A DNA stretch of 25,801 nucleotides from Candidatus Methylomirabilales bacterium. Lineage in GTDB: Bacteria; Methylomirabilota; Methylomirabilia; Methylomirabilales; CSP1-5. The DNA lies in NCBI GenBank assembly GCA_046758505.1, contig JBHIAH010000034.1, positions 1-25,801 on the forward strand. Direction: 5' to 3'. The position numbers and the translations under genes were made by a program. This document shows, in pieces, positions 1 through 24,330 of this stretch (the stretch's first letter is position 1; the number at the start of each line of letters is the position of its first letter). The notes beneath the pieces were generated by a model, which was not told the origin of the DNA, did no database searches, and worked only from the letters and a program-made list of their open reading frames with translations.

Positions 1-446
1 GTGCAAACAACATGAGCACGGATCGCGCCTCGGTTTCCCAGGCCGTCGCCTGCCGGGGGGCCCCGCCACTCCCGGCAATGTCGCTCGGGGCCTGCAGATG
101 CTGCCCCAGAAAGCAAATTTCGGGAGTAGAGGTCCTGTATCTCTTCGGGAGGGCAAGGGGGGCTGGGCCTGGACCCGGCGGAACCTGGTTTGCGTCCGGC
201 CGGGGTCCCGCCGCCGGAGCGGAGCGCAGGTGGGGGTGGCCGTCCTGCTGCCACACGATTCGCCCGGCGCGGAAGTCTGAGATTGCACCAAACCGACCAG
301 TGGAATTGTTCCGCCGGGGAAGACCCAGCCTCCGAGCCCTCCCAGGCTCGACTGCAACAGGGAGGCGAGGAGCCCGGGGCTTGCAAGTGCTGCCGTTTTG
401 CAGGTCGGTGGTTTACGAGTGGTCGGTCATCAAGTTGAGCCGCGGC

Positions 447-21046: not shown

Positions 21047-21133
21047 GCCGCATCGTGGCCGGGCGGGGTTTCCTATTGACGAAGCCCACTCGGCTTGGGT
21101 ACCGTGAAACGAGACATCCGCCAAGGGGCATCG

Positions 21134-21550
21134 ATGGCGAGGCGGTACTTCACGATCGAGGAAGCCAATACCCTCCTTCCTGAGCTGCGAGTGATCCTCG
21201 AGCAACTCCAGGCGCGGCGCCGGGAACTGGAGGACCGACAGCAGGCCTTGGAGGCGATCCGTCACCAGGCCGGTGAAAACGGCTACCGACTGGGCGGGGA
21301 TGAATTCCTCCATCTCAAGCGAGAGGCCGAGTTTATCCTGGAAGAATGCAACACCGCGATCACGAAGATTGAAGCCCTGGGATGCCTCCTCAAGGACCTG
21401 CACCTGGGTCTCATTGATTTTCCCTCTCTGCGCGAGGGCCAGGAGGTCTTCCTCTGTTGGAAGCCGGATGAGGCAGAGGTGGCGCACTGGCACAGCCTCA
21501 CCGAAGGCTTCGCAGGTCGAAAGCCGATCCGGTCCCACCCGATCTCGTAA
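21134..21550 (+). CDS. DUF2203 domain protein
   Basis: RYFTIEEANTLLP, LKDL..GLIDFP, VFLCWK..E..VAHWH...EGFAGRKPI. Upstream TTGACG-N18-TACCGT (21076-21105). Confidence 0.88.
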   Translation: MARRYFTIEEANTLLPELRVILEQLQARRRELEDRQQALEAIRHQAGENGYRLGGDEFLHLKREAEFILEECNTAITKIEALGCLLKDLHLGLIDFPSLREGQEVFLCWKPDEAEVAHWHSLTEGFAGRKPIRSHPIS

Positions 21551-21578
21551 CCCGTGCCTCGCCGGGACCGATTATCCC

Positions 21579-21608
21579 TTGACAACGAGGGGGCGGCGGT
21601 GCTGGAAT
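21579..21608 (+). promoter_or_regulatory. putative promoter of the E2-E1-Ubl operon
   Basis: TTGACA (21579-21584)-N18-TGGAAT (21603-21608), the latter preceded by TG-n. Confidence 0.5.
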
Positions 21609-21666
21609 ACAGCTACCTTCCATCACCAAACGGCATTCTCCCTGGTCTTGGGTAGGGATAGACTCC

Positions 21667-22926
21667 GTGTACAGGCGTTGGGTATCGGCCGAGGGAACGG
21701 ATGTCCCTTCCCCTTCCCAGGCTACCCCCCAGGGCAAGAGCCCCGAGGGGGGGCCGTGCATTCCGTCCGAGTTCTTTCTCTTCGAATGCGGAAAGGGGGC
21801 AGGCCCCCCCTCTGCGTGTCCTCCCGTGCTTGGCTCCCTCCCCGAGGTCCTGCGGCACTACGCCGAGAGGCTCAGGACACCCTTTGCGTTTCTGGGGAGT
21901 GGCAGTCGGTACTCCAGGCCCCACCGCGGAGACGCCATCACCCTTCACCACTTCGCCCTGCCGACCCCGCCGGTCCTGTTCGGGATCTGGGCCCGCATTC
22001 CGCAGAGTCGCCTCCCCTTGGCTTTCGGCTATCCCATCGCGCCGGCGGCCCAGCACGCCTTTCCCGCTGGCTCTCACCTTGGACGAGGACGGGTTTTGAA
22101 AGACCAGGAAGGGCGCGCCGTCGGGGAGATCGTCGAGGGGAACATCTACGTCCTCTTTAACCTCCTCGGCCAAGATGGAGAACTCAGGTCGCTTCTGCTG
22201 CGGCGACTGCTCGACCTGGGCCTTCCCCGCCTCCTGAAAGAGCTCGCCACCCTCTCCGCCCTCGGACCGGAGCCCCTCCAGGCCGCTCTGGAGACCCTGC
22301 GACAGGAGACCGACGGCCTCGCGGCGACGTGGGACCGCGAGCGCCAGGCCAACGTCCGGCAGGCCTATGTGCGGGAATGTCGAAGTCGCGTCCAAGAGGA
22401 GACCACCTTTCTGGAAGAGGAGACGCGCTTCATCGAGGAGACCCTGGAAGAGTACGCGCGTCGGATCACCGCCGAGACCCGGCGGCTCCACACCTACCAG
22501 CAGCGTCTCAACACGCTCCGGGGCAGCCCGTCCGCGCATGCGCAACACCTCAGAGACCTGGACCGGCTCAAGGAGCTTCCTGAGGTTCGCGAGGTCCGGA
22601 TTCAGGATGGCCGCATCACGATCTTCACCGCCCCGCTCCGGGCGGAGTATGGCGGCCGTGCGTATCACCTGGGGAGTTACCGGATCGAGATCTCCTTTGC
22701 CGGCGACATCCGAATCCGCAATCTCACCAACGCCCTCGGCGCGTACGACCACCCGCATATCTATCAGGGCCGGCCCTGCCTCGGCAACATTCGGGAGGGG
22801 GTCGCCAGGATGATCGGAGAGTACCAATTTGTGGCCGCCGTCTACGTCCTCCTCGACTTTTTGAAGACGGTCAACCCGAAGGATTGGCGCATTCCAATCG
22901 TGTACTGGCAGGAGGGAGGACCGTGA
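21667..22926 (+). CDS. hypothetical protein: N-terminal domain, coiled coil and C-terminal E2 (UBC)-like domain
   Basis: Long ORF with a charged helical segment (ALETLRQE...QQRLNTLR), then beta-strand-like segments, HPHIYQGRPCLG and amphipathic helices. The start is uncertain (GTG 21667, or GTG 21826). Confidence 0.7.
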   Translation: MYRRWVSAEGTDVPSPSQATPQGKSPEGGPCIPSEFFLFECGKGAGPPSACPPVLGSLPEVLRHYAERLRTPFAFLGSGSRYSRPHRGDAITLHHFALPTPPVLFGIWARIPQSRLPLAFGYPIAPAAQHAFPAGSHLGRGRVLKDQEGRAVGEIVEGNIYVLFNLLGQDGELRSLLLRRLLDLGLPRLLKELATLSALGPEPLQAALETLRQETDGLAATWDRERQANVRQAYVRECRSRVQEETTFLEEETRFIEETLEEYARRITAETRRLHTYQQRLNTLRGSPSAHAQHLRDLDRLKELPEVREVRIQDGRITIFTAPLRAEYGGRAYHLGSYRIEISFAGDIRIRNLTNALGAYDHPHIYQGRPCLGNIREGVARMIGEYQFVAAVYVLLDFLKTVNPKDWRIPIVYWQEGGP

Positions 22927-23603
22927 GGCCCGGCCACCCCATGGAATTCCTGCGACAGTTGGATCTGGTCAGTCCGGAGACGCTCGACTTTCCGATCCAC
23001 CTCATCGGCTGCGGCGGGATCGGGTCCTTCACGGCCCTCGTACTCTCAAAGATGGGGGCGCACCCCTTGTATCTCTATGATCCCGACGGGATCGAGGAGC
23101 ATAACCTGCCGAACCAACTCTTTCGCCTCAAGGATGTGGGACGCCCCAAGGTTGAGGCCCTCCGCGAGATCCTCGAGGAATTCTCCGGCGCCCCGGTCGA
23201 GGGACTGCCGGTGGAGGTGGAGGCCCGTCGCATGCTCGGAGTCGTGATCTCGGGGGTCGACAGCATGCGGGCCCGGAAGGCCATCTGGCTCCGATCCATC
23301 CGGTACCGGGCCGGCGTGCTCCGATACCTGGACGCCAGAATGGGCGTCGAGATGGCGCGAGTCTACGCCGTGAATCCCACCAACCCCGATGACATCCGGT
23401 GGTACGAAAAGAGTCTCTACACCGACGAGGAGGCCGAGATCCTCCCGTGTACCGCGGCGGCCATCAGCTACAATGGATTTGCCGTCGCCAGCCTGATCGG
23501 GAACCTGATCAAGCGCCTGGCAACCGGCGAGGATCTCCCCCGCGAGATCCTCCTCGATCTCAAGACCCTGACTCTGCTCACCAGCTCGGGCGACCGATGC
23601 TGA
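22923..23603 (+). CDS. ThiF/E1-like adenylyltransferase
   Basis: RQ, IGCGGIGS, YDPDGIEEHNLPNQ, GRPKVEAL, GVDSMRAR, DARMG, PCT. SD GGAGG and GTGA overlap with the upstream gene. Confidence 0.9.
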   Translation: MRPGHPMEFLRQLDLVSPETLDFPIHLIGCGGIGSFTALVLSKMGAHPLYLYDPDGIEEHNLPNQLFRLKDVGRPKVEALREILEEFSGAPVEGLPVEVEARRMLGVVISGVDSMRARKAIWLRSIRYRAGVLRYLDARMGVEMARVYAVNPTNPDDIRWYEKSLYTDEEAEILPCTAAAISYNGFAVASLIGNLIKRLATGEDLPREILLDLKTLTLLTSSGDRC

Positions 23604-23619
23604 ACAAAGGAGGGAGATC

Positions 23620-23853
23620 ATGACGACGGATCTCTTAGAGCGGGAACGAACGGTGGCGGTCAAGGTGGTGGTGATGGGAAAGAATGTGACCACGTACGTC
23701 GGCCCGGAGCCGCTCTCGCTCGACGCCCTGTTAACGGAGATGGGAACCAACGGAAACACGGAGGTGCGGGTCAACGGCGTCACCGTCGAGAAGACCCACC
23801 GGCTCGCCCCCGGGGACATGGTGCTCATCGTCCCCAAGATTCGGGGGGGCTGA
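23620..23853 (+). CDS. ubiquitin-like beta-grasp protein (ThiS/MoaD-like) ending in di-glycine
   Basis: 77 aa. VRVNG...L.PGD.V.IVPKIRGG-stop. SD AAAGGAGG. Confidence 0.88.
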   Translation: MTTDLLERERTVAVKVVVMGKNVTTYVGPEPLSLDALLTEMGTNGNTEVRVNGVTVEKTHRLAPGDMVLIVPKIRGG

Positions 23854-23895
23854 TCGTCCCTTCTCCCCGTCTTGGTGGGGCCCCGCGCCTCTGCG

Positions 23896-24330
23896 TCAGT
23901 AGGGCCGGATGTAGCTCCGGTGGCACTTCCGGCAGGTCTGCACGAGCCGGCTGAGGCGGGGCCGGACCTCATCGAACCGCTCTCGCCCCGCCGAGGCGGC
24001 CAGCGCCTCTGCGGCCTCCCGGAGGTCTTGCGCAAAGGCCGTGAAGGAGGGCACCTCTTCGGGGGTGACGGGCTGCGCGCGACTGGGGGAGTGAAAACTG
24101 CCGGGAGGGAACAACGGGACAATGCGATTGGCCCGCGCCGCAATGTGCCTGGCCCCCTGCTCGACCATGTCCGCCTCCCCACGGGCGAGCCCGTCCCAGA
24201 TCGCCTGCAGGGCGTTGCCAAGGTCGCGCATCAGGGCTCGGCGCTCCTCGATCACGCCCGCCGCTCCGTCAGCCGCAGCCAGAAAGCTCGAGAGGACAAG
24301 AAATCCCACCAGCCACCGGGGCCCGCTCAC
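23896..24330 (-). CDS. class II cytochrome c (c'/c556-like), periplasmic
   Basis: Signal-like N-terminus, ERRALMR, LFPPGS, and a single C-terminal CxxCH (CRKCH). Confidence 0.85.
   Translation of the reverse strand: MSGPRWLVGFLVLSSFLAAADGAAGVIEERRALMRDLGNALQAIWDGLARGEADMVEQGARHIAARANRIVPLFPPGSFHSPSRAQPVTPEEVPSFTAFAQDLREAAEALAASAGRERFDEVRPRLSRLVQTCRKCHRSYIRPY

Follow-up and report, generated by a model that had tools for sequence, protein, structure and literature searches.

A candidate ubiquitin-like conjugation system with a coiled-coil E2-like protein in a Methylomirabilales bacterium

The three genes of the window and their products

The 25,801-nucleotide stretch of DNA analysed here (the window; contig JBHIAH010000034.1 of assembly GCA_046758505.1, Candidatus Methylomirabilales bacterium; 64% G+C) carries on its plus strand three adjacent genes that probably encode an E1-to-E2 system for conjugating a ubiquitin-like protein (hereafter Ubl) to other proteins, which resembles the bacterial Bil system in its list of parts. 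The first open reading frame (ORF; 21667..22926) encodes E2L-a, a protein of 419 residues with an N-terminal domain, a coiled coil and a UBC-like domain. The second (22923..23603) encodes a minimal, single-domain ThiF-type E1 of 226 residues, and the third (23620..23853) encodes a ThiS-like beta-grasp Ubl of 77 residues which ends in KIRGG directly before the stop codon. The GTG start of the E1 gene at 22923 overlaps the E2L-a stop as GTGA, and the 16-nucleotide gap between the E1 and Ubl genes holds a Shine-Dalgarno sequence, AAGGAGG (23607..23613, plus strand), located 6 nucleotides 5' of the Ubl ATG. An earlier sequence-only reading of this DNA had described three tightly coupled same-strand genes for a ThiF-family adenylase, a beta-grasp protein and a protein with the motif HPHIYQGRPCLG (residues 362-373), as well as the P-C-T at Cys176 and the KIRGG terminus, and all of these were recovered; the adenylase matches Pfam ThiF with an E value of 1.7e-15 and 57.3 bits, where the cut-off is 28.1, and the Ubl passes Pfam ThiS narrowly (1.4e-4, 22.8 bits against 22.5).

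E2L-a has no family match in Pfam, NCBIfam or PADLOC, and the 107 homologues detected for it are all unnamed or called 'hypothetical', the labelled ones coming from Methylomirabilales/NC10. Its AlphaFold2 model, which was built on 36 sequences and has a predicted local distance difference test (pLDDT) score of 82.4, consists of four parts, namely a disordered N-terminus (residues 1-34), an N-domain rich in beta structure, two long helices and a C-domain (residues 288-419; 22528..22923, plus strand), the latter being composed of one helix, a sheet, a loop bearing HPH and Cys371, and two further helices. A UBC fold of this C-domain, which the sequence-only reading had proposed to look for in a model, was indeed found by both structure searches. 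Foldseek matches of the model in the PDB were almost all eukaryotic E2s, with UbcH7 at the top (E 8.5e-3, probability 1.00, TMt 0.46), followed by UbcH8, Ubc13 and UbcH5. In VIA, the C-domain matched E2S (Z 7.4, root-mean-square deviation (rmsd) 3.8, 113 residues aligned), UbcH8 (Z 7.4, rmsd 3.5, 110 aligned) and Ubc13 (Z 7.1-7.4); Z values of at least 5 were reached by 206 of 998 re-aligned chains, and the top 50 were E2 and RWD chains. Moreover, residues 288-418 of the model align with whole E2 cores (for example, residues 2-146 of Ubc13) over 110-116 residues, at Z 7.0-7.4 and rmsd 3.5-4.0. The bacterial E2s BilB and Cap2 were not among the 50 matches listed in the Foldseek and VIA runs. 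Because the VIA Z values are middling, the C-domain is described here as modelling with a UBC/RWD-like fold, which is not taken as proof of E2 activity. As a lead only, the ESM Atlas placed E2L-a with unnamed and mostly viral-labelled clusters at a score of 0.93, while a cluster bearing UQ_con appeared at rank 24 with a score of 0.75.

The motif HPHIYQGRPCLG (22750..22785, plus strand), which resembles the HPN motif of E2s, contains the candidate catalytic Cys371, located nine residues after the first His of HPH and directly before a helix. Among the order-level E2L sequences, the H, P and H are invariant and the Cys is present in 35 of 37; among 150 representatives of the wider family described below, the first His is found in 144, the Pro in all 150, the second His in 146 (with Asn in 2) and the Cys in 146.

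The remaining parts of E2L-a are less readily classified. The N-terminal domain (residues 50-172; 21814..22182, plus strand), modelled alone with a pLDDT of 83.2, found no convincing fold match (best VIA Z 4.7, best Foldseek E 0.58), which is not taken as the sign of a new fold; invariant Y, H, P, G, D, L and Q columns were observed in an alignment of 37 sequences. The long helical hairpin or coiled coil (residues 171-284; 22177..22518, plus strand), in which DSSP assigned helices to residues 171-196 and 201-284 of the model, returned coiled-coil matches only, and the full E2L-a profile likewise found only coiled-coil noise among PDB sequences (best E 0.011).

In an alignment of 25 E1 sequences, 58 columns are invariant, including the nucleotide-binding loop GCGGIG (G29 C30 G31 G32 I33 G34; 23007..23024, plus strand), D53, K76, D113 and Cys176. 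The latter, in the P-C-T motif (23448..23450, plus strand; 25 of 25 sequences), is a candidate thioester or relay cysteine, and its equivalent is also present in the E1 proteins of a metagenome contig (L053) and a viral contig (L058) outside the phylum. The E1 falls under every NCBIfam equivalog cut-off, its best match being ThiF (56.2 bits against 159). The nearest proteins by sequence are MccB, UBA3, ThiF and UBA5, with matches to UBA5, NAE1-UBA3 and ThiF at 1e-6 to 1e-5, and the Cap2-type E1-E2 models of PADLOC match at 1e-11; both the nearest-protein likeness and the PADLOC matches are confined to the nucleotide-binding part. Three stronger ThiF matches, of which one adjoins a ThiS gene, and eight other ThiS/MoaD matches were found in the same genome, so that the E1/Ubl pair of the window comes on top of the canonical ones.

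The two terminal Gly residues of the Ubl, G76 and G77 (23845..23850, plus strand), are invariant in 23 sequences, and the best NCBIfam match of the protein reaches 17.9 bits against a cut-off of 49.5. The stop codon lies immediately 3' of this Gly-Gly only in the genus of the window (11 sequences); of the 29 orthologues, 17 extend past it and 1 is cut. In 16 of the extended proteins the tail is 1-6 residues long (CA, RA, R, RR, NR, VL, LPASRR and similar), and in the remaining one, L046 (G040, 3-386, minus strand), it is open-ended, with a frame that runs at least 51 residues beyond Gly-Gly to the contig end. In L044, a close relative of L046, the Ubl stops two residues past Gly-Gly. Such tailed precursors require trimming, which would explain the JAB peptidase.

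The JAB partner, the second E2L and the wider family

The sequence-only reading regarded the operon as a minimal three-gene unit. This was not borne out, since a JAB gene and a paralogous E2L gene are located on another contig (C31) of the same genome (G000). E2L-b (G000:C31:22474-23613; with the JAB gene, L031:5975-7752) has neither an E1 nor a Ubl gene beside it, and the start of the following JAB/JAMM peptidase gene (G000:C31:23610-24251; 213 residues) overlaps its stop as GTGA. The JAMM metal site of this peptidase, E31 with H91-S-H93, seven residues, S101, two residues and D104, is complete, and it is invariant in 17 sequences. It matches Pfam Prok-JAB below the cut-off (E 0.005), and its only NCBIfam match is the haloarchaeal desampylase, also at E 0.005 and far under the cut-off. 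For these families, the genome has in total two E2L genes and one gene each for E1, Ubl and JAB, and it is rather likely that the window holds three of the five genes of a single Ubl system, with the rest on C31.

The search of the phylum covered 251 genomes, and its tally includes two unpublished ones (G033 and G043). The E2L family was found in 43 of the 251: each of the 13 other genomes from the genus of the window has it, most of the remaining finds fall within the same order, and many of the E2L-positive genomes have two copies. Within genera, it occurs in 11 of 21 genomes in g3 and 6 of 20 in g8. The gene neighbourhoods of homologues, which the sequence-only reading had suggested surveying, are consistent: E1 follows E2L in 30 of the 30 best loci and Ubl comes after it in 27, the other three loci ending first (29 of 29 and 26, respectively, when L004 of the unpublished G033 is omitted). 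Among 21 further loci, JAB, with its E...HSHx7SxxD motif intact, directly follows E2L in 19, E1-Ubl takes its place in one and one is cut. The JAB family is present in 36 of the 251 genomes, 35 of which also have E2L; thus 35 of the 43 E2L-positive genomes carry JAB, and the other eight (completeness 70-96%) gave no JAB match. All four gene types are combined as a single operon, E2L-JAB-E1-Ubl, in L046 and L051, and L016 has E2L-JAB-E1, with the locus ending 231 nucleotides on.

Some further features of the JAB genes were noted. A lone JAB gene adjoins a major facilitator superfamily (MFS) transporter gene in some genera (L054, G056:C23; L056, G042:C215), and an MFS gene lies about 4 kb upstream of E2L-b on C31. 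In addition, the JAB matches in G010:C132, G041:C164, G044:C314 and G055:C274 carry one or two in-frame stops, which could represent decay, assembly error, or a match running into the neighbouring gene.

A profile of the C-domain made from 37 sequences found 3134 clusters at E values of 1e-3 or below, and 1385 at 1e-10 or below, among 1.84 billion representatives. The wide-family proteins are 110-954 residues long, the domain forms the C-terminus or lies close to it in most of the best 150 of the 3134, and a helical stretch precedes it in 16 distant sequences that were aligned. All source names among the members examined read 'hypothetical protein'. This large family is uncatalogued in Pfam, NCBIfam and PADLOC, none of which names it.

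Two contexts of the module were found outside the phylum. The metagenome contig L053 (3-9501) encodes a coiled-coil E2L of 190 residues, then JAB (E 3.9e-55 to the JAB profile), then a Ubl ending KGGNKR, and the matching E1 is located three genes upstream of the E2L gene. Bicupin, NMT1/THI5-like binding-protein and M24 peptidase/creatinase genes surround this module. Two ORFs of 388 and 141 residues between E1 and E2L on L053 match no Pfam family, and as homologues of the E2L-a N-domain they were rejected (BLASTP E of at least 0.3). The second context is L058, an IMG/VR viral contig (about 5479-9365; 37% G+C) on which genetic code table 11 breaks E2L and E1 at TGA. Under table 25, the order is a Ubl domain, E2L (500 residues), JAB (336 residues) and E1 (225 residues, E 2.8e-42). 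The TGA codons of its Ubl, E2L, JAB and E1 genes sit on invariant Gly positions, among them the GxGGxG loop of E1, the latter Gly of the Gly-Gly pair in the Ubl, and the Gly before the E2L Cys, and from this codon placement L058 appears to use code 25, with TGA as Gly. About 100 further residues follow Gly-Gly in the Ubl domain of L058. A tblastn search with the C-domain against 50,697 phage records gave no match, and scans of viral sequences with P0148 and with alignments A9 and A10 found no relative. A Pseudomonas record (L052), which had a 36-residue partial match from the P0132 scan of genome contigs, was dropped as none of the four module profiles matched it.

Genomic position and history

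Upstream of the trio lies a DUF2203 gene (21095-21550), and downstream a cytochrome c' gene (23896-24330) on the minus strand, in convergent orientation. The other genes of the window are housekeeping ones, including tpiA, pgk, gap, nadD-like, proA, proB, obg and the genes for L21, RNase G and an ABC peptide transporter (30 ORFs scanned). Among these 30 ORFs, no thiG, moaE, cysteine-synthase, integrase or transposase domains were seen, in agreement with the sequence-only reading, which had placed the operon among core-like genes; no defence gene was seen either. Similarly, no sulfur-acceptor gene (thiG, moaE, cysM/cysK), rhodanese or cysteine desulfurase was seen adjoining the module in the 30 window ORFs and 12 ORFs of L053. 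The candidate promoter of that reading found no support: a perfect -35-like hexamer, TTGACA (21579..21584, plus strand), is followed after 18 nucleotides by a poor -10, TGGAAT, and a sigma-70 scan of 21300-24100 returned no site. The stretch occurs in four DNA sequencing runs that may be its source, and no RNA data for it were found.

In the genus of the window, 12 loci have a DUF2203 gene upstream of the operon, 10 of them together with an NTPase gene, and two other families add 5 loci with the DUF2203 gene in that place. This conserved position indicates that the place of the operon is inherited rather than mobile. In a tree of 50 E2L proteins, built by a quick maximum-likelihood search (support from the SH-like approximate likelihood ratio test (SH-aLRT) only, midpoint root), JAB-linked copies of the genera g1 and g3 form one group (support 93) and E1-linked copies of the same genera form another (support 88), while E2L copies of the single operons fall with the E1-linked side. 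As both paralogue clades hold two families, the duplication is, in this quick tree, old. With the root placed at the midpoint only, the topology agrees with a single old duplication, after which an E2L-JAB-E1-Ubl operon was split.

Proposed cascade, known systems and alternatives

From what is observed directly here, namely the genes with their motifs, the modelled folds, synteny, co-occurrence and the size of the family, we infer adenylation, both thioesters, protein targets and peptidase substrates as follows. The ThiF-type E1, presumably a homodimer like MoeB, ThiF and UBA5, would adenylate Gly77 of the Ubl, which would probably then be loaded onto the invariant Cys176 of E1 and subsequently handed to Cys371 in the UBC-like domain of E2L-a. 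Since no E3 is encoded, E2L-a itself would select the targets by means of its N-domain and coiled coil, and an isopeptide bond to a target Lys would result. The JAB peptidase encoded on C31 may remove the tag, and in relatives with a Ubl tail past Gly-Gly it may also mature the precursor. The E1-to-E2 cascade put forward in the sequence-only reading agrees with the fold, the HPH and Cys, the invariant E1 Cys and the adenylation motifs, its thioester chemistry and protein targets being the conditional part.

Bil is among the closest counterparts. Bacterial E1/E2/Ubl conjugation is so far known to have been demonstrated only in the anti-phage systems CBASS, Bil and Bub. Bil is composed of BilA (Ubl), BilB (E2), BilC (JAB) and BilD (E1) and is the class 6d that Iyer et al. 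described in 2006 (PMC1779556, PMC11601596); its Ubl is made with residues past the terminal Gly, which are trimmed by its deubiquitinase (PMC10557695). The present system likewise comprises Ubl, E2, JAB and E1 without an E3, split over two loci in G000 and in a single operon in L046 and L051, and residues after the terminal Gly are found in most of its lineages. However, the Bil E1 is described as having an IAD-AAD-CYS organisation and a Zn site, whereas the E1 here is a single ThiF domain; in the same way, class 6d E2s are described as having no upstream His and a His after the Cys instead (PMC1779556), whereas an invariant HPH precedes the Cys here. Moreover, the E2 here bears a coiled coil and an extra N-domain, and the genes lie in a housekeeping context rather than a defence island. 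Membership of Bil was thus rejected on E1 architecture, placement of the E2 His and context, despite the matching gene set. The relation to Bil or Bub with a different architecture expected in the sequence-only reading holds for the Bil-like parts and the differing E1 and E2, but the operon is not an isolated case, being one member of a large family.

Other known systems were compared in the same way. Bub is described as forming Ser/Tyr oxyesters and having a DUF6527 protease (PMC11601596). Bub and CBASS Cap2/Cap3 share bacterial machinery of E1/E2 type with the present system, and Cap2-type models match the nucleotide-binding part of its E1. Membership of Bub, whose E1 and E2 are not known to have a catalytic Cys, was rejected, as the Cys residues are conserved here and no match to the serine protease family PF20137 (DUF6527) was found among the scanned proteins of the window, L031 and L053; Cap2 was rejected because it fuses E1 and E2 in one protein that acts on a CD-NTase, whereas the genes here are separate and no CD-NTase was seen. 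The PRTRC cassette (TIGR03734-03742) also combines a small ThiF-type E1 with Ubl, E2-like and JAB-like proteins; it was rejected because the E1 scores 38.6 bits against the 144.75 of PRTRC_ThiF (TIGR03736) and because no PRTRC A, B or C match to E2L, JAB or Ubl was found at E values of 1 or below, and ParB, unlike in PRTRC, is missing here. With eukaryotic E2s the family shares the UBC fold and an H-P-[H/N] placed 9-10 residues before the Cys, and with the minimal UBA5 type it shares a single-domain E1; in contrast to these eukaryotic systems, 146 of 150 representatives have His instead of Asn at the last position of the motif, the UQ_con cut-off is never reached, the Ubl is ThiS-like and there is no E3. 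Taken together, a Bil-like cascade, as a variant of known bacterial Ubl conjugation, is the most economical reading and has a somewhat better than even chance of being correct.

Several results weigh against this cascade. For the E2-like domain, no Foldseek match reached an E value of 1e-3 or below (best 8.5e-3), a VIA Z of 7-8 is by the calibration of the tool the usual best-match score for models without clear relatives, and no Prok-E2 family matched any of the 146 proteins scanned among the top 150 of the wide family. In favour of an E2, the only globular Pfam family that matches the E2L domain is UQ_con (PF00179), in three of 146 wider relatives and always below the 27-bit cut-off (P0148, 2.9e-5, 24.1 bits; P0214, 7.1e-5, 22.9 bits; P0219, E 0.042); in all three, HPH falls at about profile column 73-74 and the Cys at about 83-84, counted from the match ends with indels ignored. 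Across the 37 order-level C-domains, UQ_con is unmatched at E values up to 10 and no relevant family was found. As for the E1, the proteins here are of 215-226 residues with one ThiF domain, without a separate Cys domain or Zn-binding CxxC pairs, and the role of Cys176 is suggested by its invariance. A complex prediction for E1 with the E2 domain gave a median score of 0.56 (runs of 0.56, 0.70 and 0.17) against 0.00 for the best control, with at least 95% of contacts in agreement between the runs and a partner pLDDT of at least 85. In the benchmark, 116 of 157 solved complexes passed the mark, as did 2 of 215 mismatches, but at scores of 0.60 or below only 18 of the 157 passed, along with both of those mismatches. 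The predicted complex, one run of which scored only 0.17, lends weak support, and it may have passed because it resembles solved E1:E2 complexes.

A sulfur-carrier pathway, in which the E1 would adenylate the ThiS-like protein for conversion to a thiocarboxylate and delivery of sulfur to a cofactor or metabolite, with JAB trimming the carrier or hydrolysing an adduct and the E2-like protein acting as a persulfide relay or scaffold, accounts for the fact that ThiS/MoaD are the only family matches of the Ubl and ThiF the best NCBIfam match of the E1, as well as for the housekeeping or metabolic surroundings in the window and L053 (cupin, NMT1/THI5-like, M24 peptidase). JAMM peptidases and precursors with a tail after Gly-Gly are, in addition, known from such pathways (QbsD/QbsE of QbsCDE, Mec/CysO), which share with the present genes a ThiS-like Gly-Gly end, a ThiF-like adenylase and a JAMM able to trim the tail. 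It is nevertheless unlikely, as canonical ThiF/ThiS pairs already exist in the genome, no sulfur acceptor, rhodanese or cysteine desulfurase was seen adjoining the genes in the window or L053, and E1 and Ubl both fall far under the sulfur-carrier equivalog cut-offs and pass only broad Pfam families, on which canonical ThiF/MoeB-ThiS/MoaD membership was rejected. Moreover, a conserved UBC-fold protein with HPH and Cys, which is not known to have a role in such pathways, is fixed beside the E1, JAB and Ubl genes in three contexts unrelated to one another. An equally doubtful alternative is tagging independent of an E2, as in archaeal sampylation, where E1 alone would conjugate and the E2-like protein would be a UEV/RWD-like adaptor or a His-His-Cys metal site recruiting targets or JAB. 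The RWD domain of Knl1 does match the C-domain at VIA Z 7.7-8.0 over about 90 residues, level with the E2s, HPH and Cys could bind a metal, and the desampylase is the one NCBIfam match of JAB, far below cut-off as noted. The Cys is also replaced, with HPH kept, by Arg in L021 (G010) and by Gln in L029 (G018), and hence not every E1-linked copy is a thioester carrier. Against this stand the Cys kept in nearly all wide-family representatives, the match of HPH and Cys to the E2 active-site loop in both spacing and position, and the retention in both genomes of a Cys-bearing, JAB-linked paralogue (L047, L049); the two Cys-less copies cluster in the quick tree (support 94) and could, judged from sequence, be UEV-like inactive partners.

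An anti-phage function like that of Bil, with the same chemistry applied to phage rather than host proteins, might be expected from the characterised bacterial E1/E2/Ubl systems, which are defence systems (PMC11601596, PMC10557695), and it agrees with the module on viral contig L058 and with the patchy occurrence within g3 and g8. It is, however, quite improbable: the place behind NTPase and DUF2203 genes is conserved, both E2L paralogue clades hold two families, so that the copy is old in the quick tree, the scanned ORFs of the window include no integrase, transposase or defence gene, and PADLOC matches only the generic part of the E1.

A broader version of the Bil-like cascade reading would join these points into a vertically inherited, housekeeping Ubl tagging of free-living bacteria with paired, old E2L paralogues that belong to an unrecognised major branch of E2s; this combination is held to be improbable as a whole. 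By analogy with Ubc13 and UEV, the coiled-coil E2Ls would pair through their long helices, one having lost its Cys in some lineages, and one E2L would be tied to activation (E1, Ubl) and the other to removal (JAB). The family (3134 clusters, with a member on a viral contig), having an HP[H/N]-Cys active site and a one-domain E1, could then be nearer to eukaryotic UBCs in the form of its active site than the E2s of Bil or Cap2 are. A literature search found no description of a Ubl system in Methylomirabilis/NC10 or of an HPH coiled-coil E2 family; subscription papers, which possibly bear on priority, were outside that search.

If the cascade reading is true, the housekeeping position across several families of one order suggests that Ubl tagging takes part in ordinary bacterial physiology, carried out by a system with the smallest E1 of its kind and an E2 that keeps the eukaryote-like HP[H/N]-Cys loop. 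Its core of 77, 226 and 134 residues would be compact for biochemistry. Moreover, the family would give names to thousands of 'hypothetical' proteins and provide a data point on the origin of UBC enzymes from prokaryotic antecedents.

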